Assembly (NCBI GenBank): GCA_040080645.1
Contig: JBEBIA010000003.1
Span: 11,575-75,574, forward strand
Source of the DNA: Thiobacillus sp.
GTDB taxonomy: Bacteria; Pseudomonadota; Gammaproteobacteria; Burkholderiales; Thiobacillaceae
Length of the DNA: 64,000 nt
Reading direction: 5' to 3'
In this document: positions 7,737-55,784 of the stretch, piece after piece
Numbering within the stretch: the stretch's first letter is position 1
How the letters are laid out: each line of letters starts with the position of its first letter
Made by a program: the position numbers and the translations under genes
The notes under the pieces: model-generated
What the model saw: only the letters and a program-made list of their open reading frames with translations
What the model was told of the DNA's origin: nothing
Databases searched by the model: none

Positions 7737-10330
7737 GCGGCGGGTTTTTTGGGCTTGCTCGCCGTTTTGCTGGTGGCCGGTTTTTTAGGGACTGTTTTTT
7801 TCACCGCAGGTTTTTTCGCGGCGGGCTTGGCCGCTGCCTTGGGTTTGGCCGGTTTGTCTGCTGTTTCTGTTTTGGGCTTTTTAGCCGCTGTCGTTTTGGT
7901 GGCGGCCTTGCGCACGGGCTTCTTGGCCGGGCCTTTGGCGACGCGCGCAGCAATCAACTCCATCGCTTCTTCCAGCGTCACTGCCTCGGGCGTGGTGTCT
8001 TTCGGCAGCGTGGCGTTGGTGCTGCCATGCTTCACATACGGCCCGTAGCGGCCTTCGTGAACGGTGATGTCCTTGCCGTCTTCGGGATGCGCGCCCAGTG
8101 TGCGTAGTGCGGCTGCGCCCGCACCGCGCGGGGCGCGTTCCATCACCAGCACTTCGAGCGCGCGCGGCAGGTCGATTTCATACACGCTGTCGGTTTTTGG
8201 AATCGATTTGAATTTGTCGTTATGCAGCAGATACGGCCCGAAGCGCCCGTTGTTGGCGATGATCGGCAGACCGGTTTCCGGATGGTGGCCGACTTCGCGC
8301 GGCAGTGACAAAAGTTTCAGCGCCAGTTCGAGTGTGGCCTGATCAAGCGGAATATCTTTTGGCCACGACGCACGACGCGGCTTCGGCGCTTTTTTGTCTT
8401 CCGGCATGTCGCCGATCTGCACGTAGGGACCGAAACGGCCAGACAGCAATTTGATGTCGAGCCCGCTCGCCGGGTCTTTGCCGAGAATGTTGTCGCCTTC
8501 GATCATGCCAGCGTGCAACGGGCGCGTGTAATCGCATTCCGGATAGCCCGAGCAGCCAATGAACAACCCGCGCTTGCTCGCCTGCATGAACAGCGGTTTG
8601 CTGCACTTGGGGCACGGTTCCATGATCGGGCAGCCGCGCTCGACATCCTGTTTGGCTTTCAGGTCGCCGTCGAAGCCCTTCCAGAATTCGCCCAGCAGTT
8701 GCGACCACACGCGTTTGCCGTTGGACACATCGTCGAGCTTGTCTTCAAGCTTGGCAGTGAAATCGTAATCAATGTACTGGGTGAAATGGCGGGTGAGAAA
8801 GCAGTTCACTAGCCGCCCGACGTCGGTCGGCTGAAAACGTTTTTTATCCAGCACCACATACTCACGGTCCTGCAGCGTGGAAATGATGCTGGCATAGGTA
8901 GAGGGACGACCGATGCCGTATTCCTCCAGCGTCTTCACCAGCGAGGCTTCGGTAAAACGCGGCGGCGGCTGGGTGAAGTGCTGCTCGCCGTAGAGTTTGT
9001 CGACCGGCAGGGTTTCGTTTTCTACCAGCACGGGCAGTTTGGACTCTTCTTCGTCCTCGTCATCCTGATACACCGCGAGAAATCCGGCGAACGCCAGCGT
9101 CTGGCCGGTGGCGCGGAACGTGCCCTCGCCCACGGTGATGTCGGCGGCGACAGTATCGAATTGCGCGGGCGTCATCTGGCAGGCGACGGTGCGTTTCCAG
9201 ATCAGTTCATACAGCCTGGCCTGGTCGGCGGTGAGGCGCGCGCGCACCGCGTCGGGCGTGCGCGCGGCAGATGTCGGGCGCACCGCTTCGTGCGCTTCCT
9301 GCGCGTTTTTGGTTTTGGCTTTGTAGGTCAGCGCGGTTGGCGGCAGGTAGTCCTTGTCGAACTGCGCGCTGATAAAGCTGCGGATTTCGGTGATCGCCTC
9401 GTTGGCCAGATTCACCGAATCGGTACGCATGTAGGTGATGAGGCCGACCGGGCCTTCGCCGAGGTCGATGCCTTCGTACAGCTGCTGCGCGGTGCGCATC
9501 ACGCGGTCGGTGGTCATGCCGAGCTGGCGCACCCCGGCCTGTTGCAGCGTCGAGGTGGTGAACGGCGCGCCGGGGTGACGGGCGCGACGCTTCTTTTCGA
9601 TGCGCATGACGCGGGCATCTTTGCCAGACAGCATCGCCAGCCACTCGTTGCTGCGCGCTTCGTGCTCGACCGAAAACTGCTCGATTTTCTCGCCTTTGAA
9701 ATGCGTGAGTTTGGCCGTGAACGCCTGCCCGGCCTTGTTGGTATCGAGATGCAGCGACCAGTATTCGCGCGGCACAAAGGCTTCGATTTCGAGTTCGCGC
9801 TCGACGATCATGCGCAGTGCGGGCGATTGCACGCGCCCGGCACTCAAGCCCGGGCTGATCTTGCGCCACAGCAGCGGCGACAGGTTGAAGCCAACCAGAT
9901 AATCGAGCGCGCGCCGCGCCTGCTGCGCGTCGACCAGATCGCCCGCGATTTCACGCGGATTGCGTACCGCATCCTGAATCGCCGATTCGGTGATTTCGTA
10001 AAAGGCGACGCGGCGCATCGGCGCCTTGATTTTTTTCTCTTTGAGAATCTCGCTGATGTGCCAGGAAATCGCCTCACCTTCGCGATCCGGGTCGGTTGCC
10101 AGCAGGATTTCGTCGGCTTTTTTTGCCGCCTTGACGATGGCATCGACGTGTTTGGCGTTGCGCTCGATGATCTGATACTTCATCGAGAAATCGTCCGTGT
10201 TCACCGCGCCGGTTTTCGGCTCCAGATCGCGCACGTGGCCGTAGCTGGCGAGGATGTCGTAATCCGCGCCGAGGTATTTTTTCAGCGATTTGGATTTGGA
10301 CGGTGATTCAACGATAACGAGCTTGGACAT
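7733..10330 (-). CDS. topA: DNA topoisomerase I
   Basis: LVIVESPSK, LATDPDREGEAI, SAGRVQS, ITYMRTDS (catalytic Tyr), AQEAHEAVRP, GIGRPSTY. Confidence 0.98.
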   Translation of the reverse strand: MSKLVIVESPSKSKSLKKYLGADYDILASYGHVRDLEPKTGAVNTDDFSMKYQIIERNAKHVDAIVKAAKKADEILLATDPDREGEAISWHISEILKEKKIKAPMRRVAFYEITESAIQDAVRNPREIAGDLVDAQQARRALDYLVGFNLSPLLWRKISPGLSAGRVQSPALRMIVERELEIEAFVPREYWSLHLDTNKAGQAFTAKLTHFKGEKIEQFSVEHEARSNEWLAMLSGKDARVMRIEKKRRARHPGAPFTTSTLQQAGVRQLGMTTDRVMRTAQQLYEGIDLGEGPVGLITYMRTDSVNLANEAITEIRSFISAQFDKDYLPPTALTYKAKTKNAQEAHEAVRPTSAARTPDAVRARLTADQARLYELIWKRTVACQMTPAQFDTVAADITVGEGTFRATGQTLAFAGFLAVYQDDEDEEESKLPVLVENETLPVDKLYGEQHFTQPPPRFTEASLVKTLEEYGIGRPSTYASIISTLQDREYVVLDKKRFQPTDVGRLVNCFLTRHFTQYIDYDFTAKLEDKLDDVSNGKRVWSQLLGEFWKGFDGDLKAKQDVERGCPIMEPCPKCSKPLFMQASKRGLFIGCSGYPECDYTRPLHAGMIEGDNILGKDPASGLDIKLLSGRFGPYVQIGDMPEDKKAPKPRRASWPKDIPLDQATLELALKLLSLPREVGHHPETGLPIIANNGRFGPYLLHNDKFKSIPKTDSVYEIDLPRALEVLVMERAPRGAGAAALRTLGAHPEDGKDITVHEGRYGPYVKHGSTNATLPKDTTPEAVTLEEAMELIAARVAKGPAKKPVRKAATKTTAAKKPKTETADKPAKPKAAAKPAAKKPAVKKTVPKKPATSKTASKPKKPAA

Positions 10331-10790: not shown

Positions 10791-11855
10791 TCAGTGTATT
10801 TTTTGGTAACGCCCGCCGGGGAGCTGGGCAATGCGCCCTTCCAGTTCAAGCGTCAACAGCTTCGCTGAAAGCGTATCCAGCGTCAACCCGGTTGTTTGAA
10901 CCAGTGTGTCGAGCGCGGTGGGTGCGTCGCCCAGCGCATCCAGCACCGGATCGCGTGTCGACTCGGCGAATTGCGGCGGTGACAAACGGTGCTGCCAGGC
11001 CAGCTCATCGAGAATGTCGGCGGCTGACTCAACGAGTTTCGCGCCCTGCTTGATGAGCGCGTGGCAGCCGCGCGCCAGTGGGGAATGGATCGAACCTGGC
11101 ATGGCGAAGACCTCGCGTCCCTGCTCGACAGCCACCCGCGCGGTGATAAGCGACCCGCTGTCCGGCGTGGCTTCGACCACCAGCACGCCCCGCGAAAGAC
11201 CACTAATCAAGCGGTTGCGGCGCGGAAAATTTGCGGGCAAGGGTGGCGTGCCGAGCGGAAACTCCGACACGATCAGACCTTTTTCCGCCAGTTGATGTGC
11301 CAATGTCTTGTTGCGCGCCGGGTAAATGCGATCCAGCCCGGTGCCGACGATGGCGATACTCGCGCCCGCGCCGAGCAGGCCGCCACGATGCGCCGCCGCG
11401 TCGATGCCGAGCGCGAGTCCGCTGACGATGGTGAGTCCGGCATCCGATAGCGCGTGGGCAAACGCTTCGGCATCGCGTGCACCCTGCGGCGTGGCATTGC
11501 GGCTGCCGACGATGCCAAAGCCAGCCGCGTTGAGCCAGCCGCGATGACCTTTGCAATACAGCAGCGCGGGTGGATCGGGGATTTCAAGCAGGGCTTTAGG
11601 GTAATCGGCATCGGCCAGCGTCATCAGGCTGTTGCCGGGGGCAGCCAGCCAGGCGTGAGTGCTTGCTATCGCGGCAGCATCCGGCTCGGCAAGTAAGGCA
11701 TCAATCTGTCGTGCGGACAAGTGCGCCGATAACGCGCCGCGCCCCGACGCCAAAACGGCCTCCGGAGAACCGAAGGCCGTCAGCAAGCGAAGCAGGGAAG
11801 TGTTGCCGACACCCGACGCGAACGTCAGGTGCAGCCAGGCATCGAGCTCGTTCAG
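10791..11855 (-). CDS. dprA: DNA-processing protein DprA
   Basis: GIVGSRNATPQG, IVSGLALGIDAAAHRG, FPRRNRLISGLS, SGSLITA and a C-terminal wHTH. Homology continues upstream of the tracked TTG (11786) to a CTG at 11855, so the start is uncertain. Confidence 0.93.
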   Translation of the reverse strand: MNELDAWLHLTFASGVGNTSLLRLLTAFGSPEAVLASGRGALSAHLSARQIDALLAEPDAAAIASTHAWLAAPGNSLMTLADADYPKALLEIPDPPALLYCKGHRGWLNAAGFGIVGSRNATPQGARDAEAFAHALSDAGLTIVSGLALGIDAAAHRGGLLGAGASIAIVGTGLDRIYPARNKTLAHQLAEKGLIVSEFPLGTPPLPANFPRRNRLISGLSRGVLVVEATPDSGSLITARVAVEQGREVFAMPGSIHSPLARGCHALIKQGAKLVESAADILDELAWQHRLSPPQFAESTRDPVLDALGDAPTALDTLVQTTGLTLDTLSAKLLTLELEGRIAQLPGGRYQKIH

Positions 11856-13042
11856 GGGTTTTTTACCGTGTCGAGCAGATACACCGGGCCGTCGGATTGC
11901 ATGATGAGCGCGTACGACACGCGGTCGTACACCCGATAGACCATAGCCAGCCCGCTGCGCGCGTCCGGCAGCTTCACCGCGCGGTCGTTATCCTGGCCGA
12001 TACAGGTGTTGCGGAAGGTGTTTTTCACGTCGGCCTTCTGGTCGTAGGTGACTTTGCTGTTTTCTTTGAGGCAGCGTACGTCACTGTACAGCCACGCGCC
12101 GCCGCCCGGCACGCCGGATTTTTCGTTGACCCAGGCCATGCGGTCTTTTTCGTCGCGCGTCAGCGTCACCGCTTGGCCTTCGCGGTAGATGGCGAGTACG
12201 TGGCCGGGTTCGAGACCGTCCTGGCTGCCGCGATTGAGCACGACAGTCTGGTAGCGGCCACTATCGCTCATGCCGCCGTAGGCAGAAATGATCCGCCCGG
12301 CGATGGTTTTTTCCGGCGCATGCGGCAGATATTCAAAGGTGGTGGCGGTATCCGCCTCGACCAGCTTGTCTTTAGGCAGGATTTCCTGCGCCGACTGGGT
12401 GATGCGGATTTTCTGCGGCGCGCCTTCGGTGATGGTGCGGGCATCGCCCAGATATTCCACTTCATAACCCAGCGTTTCGCCGGTTTCGGGGTCTTTCAAC
12501 GCTTTGCCGGGACGCACCAGATTCCAGCGGGTGACCCCGGGTTTGCCGCCGGTGGCGAAGGCATCGTCGCCCGCCGCCAACACCACCCGCTCGGTATTGC
12601 TGCCCAGTATGAACGGCGCGCTATCGAGTGCGCCTGCCGGGGCAACGCGCGGCTGCGACAGGAAAGGATGGATCACTCGCATCGGAATCGCTGGAATGGC
12701 ATCACTGTCAATATCGCTGGCGCGCACACCGGGCGAGAGTCTCACAGTGCGCATTCCGTTTTTGTCGCCCTTGACCAGCGACAGGCGTGGCGTTTTGCCG
12801 CTGCGGTCGAGCACGATCAGGTCGCCGGGATAAATCCAGTGCGGATTCTTGATTTCTTCGCGATTGAGATTCCAGATTTGCGGCCAGCGCCAAGGATCTT
12901 TGAGAAATTTGCCGGAGATATCCCACAGCGTATCGCCCTTGATCACGACATGCTTGTCGGGCGCGTTGTCCTGCAATTGCAGGGTGTCGGCCAGGGCGGG
13001 CATAGCCAGAGTCAGAGCCAGGGTGAGAGCAAGATAACGCAC
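11852..13042 (-). CDS. LysM peptidoglycan-binding protein
   Basis: Signal peptide, then HVVIKGDTLWDISGKFLKDPWRWPQIW...NPHWIYPGD; GTG start at 13042 with GGAGG RBS. Confidence 0.9.
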   Translation of the reverse strand: MRYLALTLALTLAMPALADTLQLQDNAPDKHVVIKGDTLWDISGKFLKDPWRWPQIWNLNREEIKNPHWIYPGDLIVLDRSGKTPRLSLVKGDKNGMRTVRLSPGVRASDIDSDAIPAIPMRVIHPFLSQPRVAPAGALDSAPFILGSNTERVVLAAGDDAFATGGKPGVTRWNLVRPGKALKDPETGETLGYEVEYLGDARTITEGAPQKIRITQSAQEILPKDKLVEADTATTFEYLPHAPEKTIAGRIISAYGGMSDSGRYQTVVLNRGSQDGLEPGHVLAIYREGQAVTLTRDEKDRMAWVNEKSGVPGGGAWLYSDVRCLKENSKVTYDQKADVKNTFRNTCIGQDNDRAVKLPDARSGLAMVYRVYDRVSYALIMQSDGPVYLLDTVKNP

Positions 13043-51111: not shown

Positions 51112-52026
51112 ATGATCAAGCAACGTACTCTTAAAACCCCGGTCAAGGCGACCGGGGTTGGCCTGCATTCCGGCGTCAAGGTCGAGGTGACCTTGCGCCC
51201 GGCCGCCCCCGATTCCGGCATTGTGTTCCGCCGCATGGATCTCGATCCGCCTGCCGAACTCAAGGCCGACCCCTATCTTGTTACCGACACCCGCCTGTGT
51301 TCCATGCTGGAATCCGGCGCGGCCAAAGTGTCTACCGTCGAGCACCTCATGTCCGCGCTGGCGGGCCTGGGCATCGACAACCTGCTGGTCGATCTCACCG
51401 GTCCCGAGATTCCCATCATGGACGGCTCGTCCGCGCCCTTCGTGTTTTTGCTGCAATCGGCGGGCATCGTCGAGCAGGACGCAGCCAAGCAATACGTGCG
51501 CATCAAACAGCCCATCGAAGTGAAAGATGGCGACAAGTGGGCGCGCTTCGTGCCGCACCACGGCTTCAAGGTCGAATTTACCATCGACTTCAAGCACCCC
51601 GTGTTCGACAAGAGCGGCAAAACCGTCAGCATCGACTTCGCCGACACCGCCTACACCAAAGAAGTGTCGCGTGCGCGCACCTTCGGTTTCATGCACGAGG
51701 TCGAATACCTGCGCAACAACGGCCTCGCCCTTGGCGGCTCGCTCGACAACGCCATCGTCATGGACGAATACCGCGTGCTCAACCAGGATGGCCTGCGCTA
51801 CGACGACGAATTCGTCAAACACAAAGTGCTCGACGCCATTGGTGACCTGTATCTGCTGGGGCATCCCATCATCGGCGCCTTCGAAGCCTACAAATCCGGC
51901 CACGCGCTCAACAACGCCCTGCTGCGCGAACTCGCGCAACATCAGGACGCCTGGGAAATGGTCAGCTTCACCCAGGAGCAGGACGTGCCTGCCGCTTTTC
52001 TGCGCCTGCATCCGCTCACGGCATGA
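51112..52026 (+). CDS. lpxC: UDP-3-O-acyl-GlcNAc deacetylase
   Basis: QRTL...[28 protein letters not shown]. Confidence 0.98.
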
Positions 52027-52205
52027 TCGTTCTGCGCCTGCTGATCGTCGCAGTCCTTGTTTCCGTGGCGGCGCTGGGTCTGGCGTGGTTATTGAGCGGC
52101 GACCGAAAGTATCTGGGTTATATCAGCCGCGTGCTGCGCTTCGCGCTTATCGTCGGCGTGATCGCGGCGCTGTTTTATGTGGTGGAGCGGCTGGTGTTGC
52201 GGTGA
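52023..52205 (+). CDS. Small two-TM membrane protein (60 aa)
   Basis: Two hydrophobic helices around SGDRKY; ATGA overlap with lpxC. Confidence 0.7.
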
Positions 52206-52220
52206 GGGCAGAAATAATCG

Positions 52221-52266
52221 TGTCTGACCCTATTCTCTCTGTTTGTCTGACCCTATTCTCTCTGTT
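52221..52266 (+). repeat. Perfect 2 x 23-bp tandem repeat
   Basis: TGTCTGACCCTATTCTCTCTGTT at 52221-52243 and 52244-52266. Confidence 0.95.
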
Positions 52267-52316
52267 TTATTCCGTCACGTGACGGCTATTTAACGTTAGC
52301 CTGCGGGGAGTCACTT

Positions 52317-53630
52317 TTGTCAGACACTGAGTTGAAACTCAAATTTTGGCGCGGAGACCAAATTGGCGCTGAGAGATTGGCAGCGACAATTCTTCACATC
52401 GATGGTTTCTCATCCGTTGACCCGCAATGCCCGCTTGGTGGCCCCGATGGATTGAAGGACCTGCTTTGTGAAAAGAATAGCTGGCGCTATGTTGCCGCTG
52501 CTTATTTCCCTACCGCTGAGAAAGATTTCAAAGCTGTTCAAGATAAATTCATTCACGACCTCGCTGGTGTTACAAAGAACTCTGCTCAAGGAATTGTATT
52601 TCTCACGAACCAGTCGCTAACGCCAAGTCAGCGCGAAGCTCTTTCTGAATTGGCTGACGCCAATGGGCATAAAGCAATTTTGTACCACCTAGAACGACTG
52701 CGGTCTTTACTTGACAGCCCCTCAGGTTACGGCGCCAGATTGGAATTCCTTGATATAGACATGGCCAGAGAAGAGCAATTAAGCTTCTTCTCGCAATGGA
52801 ATAGATCATTCACAGATCAACTTCAGGCACATGGCCTAATGATCATCAGAGAAATATCAAAGAAGATCGATTTACTCGCAGGTACAACGGAAAAGTTCGG
52901 GCTTCGCGTTGATGAAATGAGCGAGTTTGTTGCCCAAACTCGCTCATTTCTTGATTCCGTAAAAGCACCAAGTAACAAAAGAAACTTTGCCCAATCGGTA
53001 CACGATTTCTCAACCAAAGAGTTGACAGTTAACGACCTGTGTATGTTGCATCGTGCCCTGCTATTTGATGACTCAATTGGATTACACGTTGGCAAACTAC
53101 GGCAAGATGTTATCTGGATTGGAGGTCCAGGTGCAAACCTAGCTACAGCACAGTTTGTCCCGCCAGCACCAGAACTTGTACCTGAGTTACTTGAAGCAAT
53201 GTTGTCTGAGTGGAGAGATAACTTCGACAACCTCGACAAGGCAACAGACAAAGACAAAATTACCGCAATCGCAAAATTTCATCACAGGTTTCTTAATATT
53301 CATCCGTTCATGGATGGAAATGGACGCATTGCTCGCTTTTTATTAACGCAACATGCTCATGAACTTCTCAAGCAAAAACAACGAATCATTATTGAGGATC
53401 GTCGCCCATACTTCGATGCGCTCTCACTTGCCGATAAAGGTGATTACTCGGCTCTTGAAACTCAAATAACACAAGCAATATTTGGTGTTGAGTTTGTGGC
53501 GGGTTCGCCATGTCAGATGTCAGGACAGCAATGCCCTGCATGTAAGGAGGGTGTCATGGATACCGACATAAGTGGAACAGGTGTTAAGTGTTCATCCTGC
53601 GGTTTATTTATTCCTGCTGTATTGCCATGA
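52317..53630 (+). CDS. Fic-domain protein with an N-terminal restriction-endonuclease-like domain and a C-terminal Zn ribbon
   Basis: Canonical Fic motif HPFMDGNGRIAR; N-terminal PLGGPDGLKD...FLTNQ; C-terminal CPAC-x16-CSSC; TTG start after GGAG; AT-rich. Confidence 0.85.
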   Translation: MSDTELKLKFWRGDQIGAERLAATILHIDGFSSVDPQCPLGGPDGLKDLLCEKNSWRYVAAAYFPTAEKDFKAVQDKFIHDLAGVTKNSAQGIVFLTNQSLTPSQREALSELADANGHKAILYHLERLRSLLDSPSGYGARLEFLDIDMAREEQLSFFSQWNRSFTDQLQAHGLMIIREISKKIDLLAGTTEKFGLRVDEMSEFVAQTRSFLDSVKAPSNKRNFAQSVHDFSTKELTVNDLCMLHRALLFDDSIGLHVGKLRQDVIWIGGPGANLATAQFVPPAPELVPELLEAMLSEWRDNFDNLDKATDKDKITAIAKFHHRFLNIHPFMDGNGRIARFLLTQHAHELLKQKQRIIIEDRRPYFDALSLADKGDYSALETQITQAIFGVEFVAGSPCQMSGQQCPACKEGVMDTDISGTGVKCSSCGLFIPAVLP

Positions 53631-53634
53631 ACAA

Positions 53635-53706
53635 GGCTAACTTGGCGCTCAAGTGGGACGCCAAAAATGCTGCGCATTTTCGTCGCCCCTTAGCTCTACG
53701 TTGGGC
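53635..53706 (+). other. attC recombination site (72 bp)
   Basis: R'' GGCTAAC; L'' GCTCAAG pairing with L' CTTAGC with an extrahelical C; inner stem AAAATGC/GCATTTT; R' GTTGGGC. Confidence 0.9.
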
Positions 53707-53789
53707 ATCACAAGTAGAATTTTGCAATTGGAAGCCAATCACCATGACAGCAGCCAAAGGAACGCTCAAGACCTGCGCTAAAGGACGCG

Positions 53790-53957
53790 CCTACTGTGAT
53801 TTCAGGCAAGCACAGCAATGCCGCGCTGATGCCGACGGAAGACTGGAATGCAATTCAGGAAACCCTGTATTTGCTGGCCGTGCCGGGGGTGCGTGAGTCC
53901 ATCAAGGCGGGCATGGCGGAGCCGCTCGCAAAAAGTGCGCGGGCGCTCAAGTGGTAA
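53790..53957 (+). pseudogene. Truncated Phd/YefM-type antitoxin
   Basis: Frame reads PTVISGKHSNAALMPTEDWNAIQETLYLLAVPGVRESIKAGMAEPLAKSARALKW*. The N-terminal DNA-binding part is missing (in-frame TGA at 53745) and no intact toxin follows. Confidence 0.8.
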
Positions 53958-53999: not shown

Positions 54000-55784
54000 A
54001 TGCATCACGCTGACACCACAGTATTGCTTGCCTGTCTGAAAGACGACCTGTCGATTGAGCAGGGCGTTCTCACGGATGCACTGAACATCGACCAATACGA
54101 TCTGCTTTACCCGCAGATTGAGCAGCGCATGTGGCAGGGCGACGACGCTGCCTTTGCGCACTGGCTGGGGCGATATCAGGCGCTGTTCCGCGAGCAGCAG
54201 GCCTTGATTGACGCTTCGGACCTGCGCGAACAACACCATTTCATCATCGGTATACCGGTCGCGGGGCGTCCGGCGCATCTGCGCCATTGCCTCGACAGCA
54301 TCCTTCAGCAGTGTCACCTGTTTGGCTATGGCGGTCAGGATGCCGGCGGACGCTACGCCAAATTCACCGTGATCGTGTCGGAAGACAGCCGTGACGCTGA
54401 ACATCGAGCGCAGCACCAGGCACTCGTCGCTGAGTATTGCGACAAGGGTTTGTCCGTCGTGCACTACGATCTGCCCGAGCAAGTTCAGTTGTTGCAAGCT
54501 ATTCCAGATACTGAACGCGCACAGCTCGGCAGGCTGCTCACCACCCAGCCCGCCGACCGTTTTTATCAGAAAGGCCAGGCGGCAAACCGCAACCTCTGCT
54601 ACCTGAAAATGCGCCAGCTCACGCAGGACACGGCACGCACGCTCTATTATCTGGTGGACAGCGATCAACTGTTTCTGGTGAACCGCCAGACCGCCGAGGG
54701 CGAGCGCGCCTATCCGGCGCTGAATTATTTCTACACGCTCGACCGTATATTTCGAACACAGCCCGTCTCGGTACTGACAGGCAAACTGGTCGGTGACCCG
54801 CCCGTTTCCCCCGCCGTCATGGCCGCGAATTTTCTCGATGACGTCACGGCGTTTTTGCAGCGCATCGCCACGCTTGATTCCCATGCCGCGTGCAGCTTCC
54901 ACCCGCAGAATGTGCCGCTGCCGGACGACGCGGCCTACCACGACCTGGCCAGCCGCTTCGGCTTCGATGCGCCGACCCAAGCTGTCGACTACCGCTGCCC
55001 CCTCGAGGGCGCACACGATCACGCCGCCTGCCTGTCGACATTTTCAGCGCGCCTGCACAACTTCTTTTTCGGCGAACATCTCACGCGCAAAACCGGCTTC
55101 CGCTACGCCGGGTCCTCGCTGGCCCTCAGCCCCGCGCGAACCATTTATCCCGGCAACACCATCGTCAATTTTGAGGGCCTGAAAACCATCATTCCCTTCG
55201 GTCACCTGCGCCTGCGCATGTCCGGCCCCACCGCCGGGCGGCTGATCCAGGCCGAAATCGGCAGCCGTTTCGCGTCGGTCAATCTACCCATGCTGCACAA
55301 GCGTACGATTGCCGACGCGCAGGATGCGTTTCGCCCCGGCGTCGAACAACACAATGCGGCAATTGATATCTCGGACGAATTCGAGCGCCAGTTTTTTGGC
55401 GATCTGATGCTGTTCTCTGTTGTGGCCTGGCTGAAAGACCACCGCCTCGATGATCTCAGCGACAGCACCCAGCTGGACACCGTGGTGGAGCAGGTGGAAG
55501 CCGGATTGCTAGTGGACTATGCAGACAAGCATCGCGCCGTGAACGACCGCCGCGAAGCGCTCGAACGCTGGCTGGATGCCCGGCCCGGCTGGCCCGACCC
55601 GTCAACGCATGCCCGGCTCACGCAGTTTCTGCGTAACATCGCCGCCAATTTTGGCGACGCCTCGCCCGCCTGGACACAGATTCAATCGGCTGCGCATCGT
55701 CAGCAGCGCCGCCAGCAAATTGTCGATGCGCTGCGGCATTACCGACGCGAGCGCGACGCGTGGGATCGTCTGTTTAGTCAGTAA
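54000..55784 (+). CDS. Hypothetical protein with GT-A (glycosyltransferase 2-like) motifs
   Basis: FIIGIPVAGRP..L..CLDSI, VIVSEDS, GQAANRN, YYLVDSD (DxD). Start uncertain (53967 TTG or 54000 ATG). Confidence 0.7.
   Translation: MHHADTTVLLACLKDDLSIEQGVLTDALNIDQYDLLYPQIEQRMWQGDDAAFAHWLGRYQALFREQQALIDASDLREQHHFIIGIPVAGRPAHLRHCLDSILQQCHLFGYGGQDAGGRYAKFTVIVSEDSRDAEHRAQHQALVAEYCDKGLSVVHYDLPEQVQLLQAIPDTERAQLGRLLTTQPADRFYQKGQAANRNLCYLKMRQLTQDTARTLYYLVDSDQLFLVNRQTAEGERAYPALNYFYTLDRIFRTQPVSVLTGKLVGDPPVSPAVMAANFLDDVTAFLQRIATLDSHAACSFHPQNVPLPDDAAYHDLASRFGFDAPTQAVDYRCPLEGAHDHAACLSTFSARLHNFFFGEHLTRKTGFRYAGSSLALSPARTIYPGNTIVNFEGLKTIIPFGHLRLRMSGPTAGRLIQAEIGSRFASVNLPMLHKRTIADAQDAFRPGVEQHNAAIDISDEFERQFFGDLMLFSVVAWLKDHRLDDLSDSTQLDTVVEQVEAGLLVDYADKHRAVNDRREALERWLDARPGWPDPSTHARLTQFLRNIAANFGDASPAWTQIQSAAHRQQRRQQIVDALRHYRRERDAWDRLFSQ

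Follow-up and report, generated by a model that had tools for sequence, protein, structure and literature searches.

How does a single promoterless gene, accompanied by an integron recombination site and by no integron integrase, come to stand behind the lpxC gene of Thiobacillus? The question is raised by a 64,000-nt stretch of Thiobacillus sp. DNA (GenBank assembly GCA_040080645.1, contig JBEBIA010000003.1, positions 11,575 to 75,574 of the forward strand; "the window" denotes this whole stretch, and coordinates count from its first letter), in which the initial annotation had proposed a solitary integron cassette with a textbook attC. Our analysis revealed that segment 52296-53700 is a genuine integron gene cassette, composed of one promoterless open reading frame (ORF) of the Fic family and a 72-nt attC, and that on its left it directly adjoins the final 33 bases of an attI belonging to a betaproteobacterial integron family, whose arrays contain attCs of the same attC family. 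It is therefore very probable that the cassette was captured at attI and that the platform broke later, leaving behind a remnant of the SALIN type (single attC site lacking an integron integrase) with a truncated attI.

The attC site and the boundaries of the cassette

52296-53700, plus strand: gene cassette, 1405 bp, 45.7% G+C against 61% in the window
53635-53706, minus strand: attC, 72 nt, 35.5 bits with covariance model R1; the bottom strand is the one that is folded and recombined
Parts of the attC, top strand: R'' 53635-53641, spacer, L'' 53647-53653, variable hairpin, L' 53689-53694, spacer TAC, R' 53700-53706
52317-53630, plus strand: Fic ORF of the cassette, 437 aa, TTG start, with GGGGAG at 52306-52311 (5 nt before the TTG)

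Segment 53635-53706 is the canonical attC of a real integron cassette. The core sites of an attC were sought as R'' of the form RYYYAAC and R' of the form GTTRRRY, inverted at the ends and 50-150 nt apart; R'' GGCTAAC agrees with its consensus at 6 of 7 positions (the exception being G at position 2) and R' GTTGGGC at 7 of 7. A covariance model (R1), constructed from 13 attC sites of metagenomic integron arrays (alignment A2) with the window excluded, matched the minus strand of the segment end to end (model positions 1-78) with a score of 35.5 bits (E-value 5e-7). It was the one significant match in the 64 kb, with 16.6 bits (E-value 0.06) for the second best. The same model detects more than 60 attCs, a few hundred bp apart, in the metagenomic arrays L088-L106. 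It is family-specific, as it misses an attC-like site behind one homologue of the Fic gene (L085) and gives nothing for two other loci (L002 and L086). The Rfam search returned no matching family at the attC.

The consensus structure predicted by RNAalifold from alignment A2 is that of a textbook attC, i.e. the R boxes and the L boxes each form a stem, a spacer lies between the two, and the L stem has one extrahelical (bulged) column. With the AAC/GTT pairs enforced, the bottom strand of the site in the window folds into an R stem, a spacer, an L stem and a hairpin (-13.9 kcal/mol), with single-base bulges at G (53650), A (53654) and T (53658). An extrahelical G is the hallmark of L''. The initial annotation had described a 72-bp attC with an extrahelical base and had staked this on a covariance match and an R/L-box structure of the bottom strand; the R1 match and the bulged G at 53650 in the constrained R/L fold bear it out. 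In an alignment of 24 sites, including that of the window, 97.2% of the cells pair, compared with 25-47% for slid partners, and nine pairs exhibit changes on both sides; because this alignment was fitted to the model, it is biased towards the structure. The nearest relatives are the short sites L103a and L104a from arrays L103 and L104, with which the attC of the window shares the flanks at R'', L'', L' and R' (GCTCAAG...CCCCTTAGC), while the central hairpins are different.

The boundaries of the cassette are set by the left core GTTAGCC (52295-52301) and by R' GTTGGGC (53700-53706). Between them lies one ORF in the same orientation, which starts 21 nt past the boundary and stops 4 nt before R''. 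Both cores, R'' GGCTAAC and a length of about 1405 bp had been given correctly in the initial annotation, together with the claim that R'' complements the 5' core of its own cassette and not the downstream R'. This claim agrees with a rule found across 51 cassettes, in which the reverse complement of R'' shares 3.59 of the 4 variable positions with the 5' core of its own cassette and 2.51 with the downstream R'; the own core wins in 39 of the 51 and loses in 5. For the window cassette, the respective values are 4/4 and 2/4. Upon excision, the 1405-bp circle would be expected to carry the junction ...CTCTACG/TTAGCC..., and the site without the cassette would read ...TATTTAACG/TTGGGCATC...; no excision joint was seen in the assembled contigs of the read runs.

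The left flank is the end of an attI

52265-52297, plus strand: truncated attI (delta-attI), TTTTATTCCGTCACGTGACGGCTATTTAACGTT, the last 33 attI bases; crossover between G52295 and T52296
52221-52266, plus strand: two perfect 23-bp tandem repeats, TGTCTGACCCTATTCTCTCTGTT, which abut the attI remnant and stand in place of the remaining attI and intI

The full stretch is present in two drinking-water metagenome runs (X1 and X2), and the reads show segment 52265-52300 to be repetitive within the source metagenome, where at least four different continuations begin right after GTT. The 26-mer CCGTCACGTGACGGCTATTTAACGTT was found at 20 loci in JGI metagenomes. The ~130 nt on its left are conserved in all loci of this set that have enough left flank, while the right side diverges straight after GTT into GTTRRRY cores in all loci; the sites are followed on the right by arrays in which small ORFs, all pointing the same way, alternate with attCs. 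In L104, a 333-aa protein encoded ~110 nt left of the attI end was identified as an integron integrase (TIGR02249, 474.7 bits against a cut-off of 265), and IntI adjoins the attI end also in L090, L092, L093 and L102. The conserved left side, the divergence after GTT and the adjoining IntI together indicate that the sequence shared by the 20 loci is a bona fide attI.

When a 226-nt attI region was turned into an nhmmer profile, the window matched positions 194-226 only (E-value 1.3e-9), and blastn gave the same extent. The left flank of the cassette is identical to the bona fide attI end at 33 of 33 positions, and neither blastn nor nhmmer found attI sequence left of position -33 in the window. 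Since the 33 bases on the left are the end of an attI, the cassette was most probably captured at an attI and not in ordinary chromosomal DNA; judging by the sequence, it would be the first cassette of a broken integron rather than an isolated insertion.

The 23-bp repeat has no copy elsewhere in the window, nor in the fetched loci, plasmids or viral contigs. Related copies, some of them inverted, were found only in read ends of the runs X1, X2, X4 and X5, next to another attI end or to the right breakpoint described below. They may be accessory arms of a variant attI or native to the locus, or else they may mark where a small mobile element ends.

In the family as a whole, 13 loci extend far enough to the left, and 6 of them lack intI beside an otherwise complete attI. 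Loci L088, L089, L091, L095, L097 and L106 exhibit a full or nearly full attI and cassette arrays with no intI beside them, pilT-like or other genes being found there; in L096/L102 and L099 the intI matches fall into two pieces, as if frameshifted.

The integrase

A tblastn search with the IntI of L104 (TIGR02249) found no intI in the window (best E-value 4.9). The earlier claim that there is no integrase is thus valid for the 64 kb, but not for the source metagenome, which contains an intI-like contig at a depth like that of the host. This contig is colinear with the intI of L104 (499 letters against 502) and has depths of 40.8x, 52.9x and 24.9x in X1, X2 and X5, where the host contigs have 41-51x, 58-66x and 21-28x. 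As its depth tracks that of the host contigs, IntI is probably encoded elsewhere in the host genome.

The comparison of the reads with the intI-attI region of L104 also revealed an intI with attI at 45.4x (X1) and 134.1x (X2), which pairs with the continuation GTT/GGGCC at 53x and 173x. This intI and attI belong to another, more abundant organism. Hence one of the four or more sequences that follow the attI node 52265-52300 in this drinking-water community comes from a more abundant organism with its own intI, and the same attI is thus common to several organisms or replicons.

The right edge of the cassette and differences between strains

53701-53784, plus strand: 5' fragment of a second cassette, 84 bp, beginning TTGGGC..., with an ATG at 53745; ends at the strain breakpoint
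53785-53957 (or as far as 53966), plus strand: 3' part of a yefM/phd antitoxin gene (Pfam PhdYeFM), with ~28 N-terminal codons missing

In view of the own-core rule in the 51 cassettes, GTTGGGC marks the start of another cassette. The initial annotation had placed an eroded second cassette from 53701 on, and this is supported by the differing R' and by the 84 bp that are left, behind which R1 found no second attC in the 64 kb. The fragment shows no likeness to yefM and ends at a breakpoint between strains (53784/53785), beyond which the yefM remnant begins. The latter encodes the C-terminal 53-56 aa, with 82% identity to homologues of 80 aa, and its Pfam PhdYeFM score (27.8 bits) lies just under the cut-off of 29.8. 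A member of the Phd/YefM family would be expected to have the full ~80-aa domain and to be paired with a toxin gene; here the domain is truncated, and no toxin ORF follows it. The truncated yefM is common to all strains of the species in the read data (X4 and X5 cover it), and it suggests an older degraded cassette or a toxin-antitoxin insertion at the same locus.

The strains differ in what precedes the breakpoint. In X4, X5 and a minor form of X2, near-identical flanks are found with no cassette segment and with GTCAGACACGATATTCGTGCTGGGTGTCGC before 53785. In X3, the cassette is present and both junctions are identical to those in the window.

The host locus

The dcw cluster in the window ends with ftsA, ftsZ and lpxC (51112-52026) and is followed by orf60 (52023-52205), which encodes a 60-aa membrane protein. 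LpxC exhibits 91-93% identity to proteins from Thiobacillus metagenome-assembled genomes. Because orf60 was found 3' of lpxC in four Thiobacillus-type relatives, it can be regarded as native; so can a gene for a 605-aa protein (start near 54000) and its sulfotransferase neighbour on the other side of the cassette, as their homologues lie downstream of lpxC in L107, a complete Thiobacillus genome (GCA_942493085.1). Between these native parts, across 52206-53784, the G+C content drops from ~61% to 39-48%. The cassette has the orientation of lpxC and orf60, and a pattern scan of the 111-base gap that separates orf60 from the start of the Fic ORF revealed no terminator-like or promoter-like site. 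Exact-protein look-ups of the Fic protein, P0001 and orf60 gave no match.

In L107, which represents another species, the same lpxC-orf60 pair is followed by a different lone cassette of low G+C content (11253-12194), with a 288-aa ORF and no intI nearby. This cassette has the 5' core GTTAAGC and a canonically folding attC (R1 22.6 bits, fold z-score -4.0). Its left junction gave no match to the attI profile, so that an ancestral attI shared at this locus could not be shown. Three further loci with the lpxC-orf60 pair (L108 and the Thiobacillus relatives L112 and L113) have no cassette there.

The Fic protein and its relatives

The Fic domain was identified with confidence (Pfam PF02661, 64.4 bits against a cut-off of 24), and its active-site motif HPFMDGNGRIAR at residue 329 is intact and fits the pattern HxFx(D/E)GNGRxxR. 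The protein is composed of an alpha/beta N-terminal domain with a weak resemblance to Mrr_cat, a long helix, the Fic domain and a C-terminal 2xCxxC zinc ribbon, where the Mrr_cat (E-value 0.028) and Zn_ribbon (E-value 0.005) matches both fall below the cut-off. PADLOC matches to SoFic and PDC-S04 cover the Fic domain only. The structure model has a predicted local distance difference test score (pLDDT) of 74, and its fold matches (PDB Fic proteins and FICD) are Fic proteins only. Around the conserved GGPDG motif of the N-terminal domain pLDDT is below 50, and the fold search with the whole protein retrieved Fic domains only.

With the Fic/Doc (Fido) AMP-transferases SoFic, FICD and EcFicT the protein shares the canonical HPFxDGNGRxxR motif and the Fic fold; it differs from them in the extra N-terminal domain, in the C-terminal zinc ribbon, and in that no inhibitory motif and no partner antitoxin were found. 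Autoinhibited Fic proteins of classes I-III carry the helix motif [ST]xxxE[GN], for which a regular-expression search found no match in the 437 aa, although a divergent motif is possible; no partner antitoxin gene was found in the cassette. The cargo is probably an AMP-transferase, for which a toxin-like or defence-like role would be a guess.

Homologues of the Fic protein reach 80% identity, and a scan of contigs with the Fic alignment and the generic motif IHPFxDGNG retrieved distant Fic proteins only. In L001, the 80%-identical homologue again has a GTTAGCC core, and its attC scores 81.8 bits with R1. Its cassette is placed between 264-nt arms (9550-9813 and 11474-11737) that are 100% complementary, next to an ORF or fragment of the IS110 type (Transposase_20); the arms may reflect a true inverted duplication or else an error of assembly. 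The L085 homologue has GTTAGCC and an attC-like site with no R1 score. In L083, the homologue lies inside an island with two phage-type integrases, and after its stop a collapsed GCCTAAC-TAAAC-GTTAGAC (8357-8375) is found, i.e. an R''/R' pair from which the middle of the attC is missing. In the Fic coding region of the window, segment 52914-52950 is a hairpin with perfect 16-bp arms around a loop of 5 nt; it was dropped as a candidate feature, as it is not conserved in five homologues.

Origin of the remnant

According to the reading that we prefer, the cassette circle would have entered by IntI-catalysed attI x attC recombination, with the crossover G/TT at 52295/52296, and would have become the first cassette of an array. 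In a later break of the platform, intI and at least 90 bp of attI would have been lost, with the two 23-bp tandem repeats coming to abut the remnant, and the next cassette would have been cut after 84 bp and joined to the 5'-truncated yefM. The result would be a single-attC remnant with no integrase and with a delta-attI on its left. Read-through transcription from the lpxC-orf60 operon probably serves the Fic gene, which has its own ribosome-binding site; this is suggested by the common strand and by the lack of any terminator-like or promoter-like site in the scanned gap. The cassette would not be mobile by itself, but with a delta-attI at one end and an intact attC at the other, it could in principle still be excised by an IntI provided in trans. 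Such excision seems plausible, because delta-attI sites of mobile integrons that retain 8-12 nt left of the crossover have been reported to be functional with IntI1 (Gonzales Machuca et al. 2026, PMC12901181). Those sites are likewise cut down to the crossover-proximal part of attI, whereas the one described here keeps 31 nt left of the crossover and bounds a chromosomal integrase-less remnant of an environmental integron family.

Several observations weigh against this account. The unconstrained minimum of the single-stranded bottom strand (-16.3 kcal/mol, z-score -3.5) is another fold, in which the R boxes are unpaired, and a scan for core motifs combined with the constrained energy fails to set the site apart from the other AAC...GTT pairs of the GC-rich coding DNA in the window. 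As the free fold competes and the energy does not discriminate, the structural case rests on the covariance model and on the comparison with homologous sites, and that model is family-specific and was built here, being different from the general attC model of IntegronFinder. The 23-bp repeats could mean that the attI is a variant one and not a truncated one. The intI-like contig is tied to the host by depth ratios only, and read-through is argued from orientation and pattern scans, the cassette region being found in no RNA run. As to the order of events, the cassette may have been captured in place with decay to follow, or it may have arrived as part of a fragment.

In a different explanation, the delta-attI and the cassette arrived, or lost their integrase, through some other mobile element or rearrangement, the repeats being transposase or recombinase sites at the end of a miniature inverted-repeat transposable element, an insertion sequence or a transposon. 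The polymorphic block 52206-53784 would then be the cargo of the element and not an integron decayed in place. We consider this unlikely, yet it accommodates several facts: the repeat core (GGGTCAGACACGAT) recurs in inverted copies in the alternative strains, at a distance of 18 nt from the right breakpoint on its left side, a further repeat pair is found on an X1 contig that also holds an attI end, the window has no attI sequence left of -33, and the homologous cassette in L001 sits between 264-nt perfect inverted repeats by an IS110-type transposase fragment. However, the window contains no second end and no transposase, the repeat is unmatched in plasmids, viral contigs and fetched loci, and the orientation of the extra copies with respect to attI was deduced and not seen. 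Moreover, capture by attI x attC recombination would still be needed as the first step. Or perhaps the left flank is a working satellite site, i.e. a variant attI with the 23-bp repeats as accessory arms, served by IntI in trans, at which cassettes turn over and are expressed from the lpxC operon? The repeat core TGTCTGAC does resemble the repeats TATCCGAC, TATTGGAC and TATCGGAC in the left arm of the bona fide attI. In attI1, two direct repeats are followed by an inverted L/R pair, and the layout seen here is similar. L107 presents a different single cassette with a well-folding attC (z-score -4.0) after the same orf60, strains with and without the cassette coexist, and an intI-like gene occurs at a depth like that of the host. 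Against this stand the lack of read evidence for more than one cassette at this left flank, the L107 junction with no attI-profile match, the three loci with the same lpxC-orf60 pair and no cassette (L112, L113 and L108), and the clearly degraded right side; we find a working site of this kind improbable. Quite improbable, too, is the related idea that an integrase-less attI core behind the lpxC operon has become a satellite landing pad for IntI acting in trans, with the repeats perhaps as accessory arms; if it were true, cassettes would turn over there and borrow housekeeping transcription, and the lone cassette of L107 would be a second example.

Two further possibilities concern the junctions themselves. 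Insertion at an ordinary place in the chromosome through attC x attG recombination, as described by Loot et al., has been demonstrated experimentally (10.1101/2022.09.11.507474), SALINs are common, and a site downstream of an expressed operon would fit selection for expression. This route is nevertheless very hard to reconcile with a left flank that is attI at 33 of 33 positions and a right flank that is the 5' end of another cassette, where ordinary DNA would be expected on both sides. In the assembly graph, the 33-mer forms a repeat node that has at least four continuations on the right and several on the left in X1/X2, for which reason a chimera assembled through the repeat had to be excluded as well. 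Such an error is highly improbable, since a contig from an independent study (X3) spans 52251-52432 without any difference, and since the cassette-bearing contig continues into the native 605-aa gene, which in L107 lies 3.3 kb downstream of orf60, so that both flanks of the cassette are neighbours in a related complete genome. Read depth is in accord as well, the left contig having 51 and the Fic contig 41.5 in X1, and 65.6 and 58.1, respectively, in X2. Capture at an attI whose platform subsequently broke remains our preferred explanation.

Relation to known integrons and significance

The locus is a well-preserved SALIN-type integron remnant with a truncated attI, and its kind is already known: single attC sites and clusters of attC sites lacking an integron integrase (SALIN and CALIN) are described classes (PMC9024848; 10.1101/2022.09.11.507474). 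With one significant R1 match, one ORF and no intI in the 64 kb, it corresponds to the SALIN definition of a single attC with no integrase nearby, and ordinary annotation would miss both this locus and its known counterparts. The difference is that a recognisable attI fragment flanks the cassette here, owing to which its origin can be assigned to an integron platform and not to an attG insertion into the genome. It is not a complete integron, as no intI stands next to the attI and only 33 of the 226 attI profile positions are present. The betaproteobacterial sedentary chromosomal integrons and the metagenomic family L087-L106 share with it the attI end, the attC family and small cassettes of low G+C content in one orientation, but the window has no intI and one complete cassette, and the rest of the attI has been replaced. 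The IntI of Thiobacillus denitrificans has been included in a published IntI tree (PMC3108266).

These results leave the general understanding of integrons unchanged. What they add is one specific example of a lone cassette whose sequence reveals where it came from, while for SALINs generally the origin is an open question. The cassette carries a Fic protein of three domains that has not been studied so far and that travels in this form. Loss of intI with survival of attI and the cassettes is frequent in one environmental integron family (6 of the 13 loci whose left flank is long enough), and the location after an essential operon hints at a way for a promoterless cassette to stay expressed once its platform is gone.

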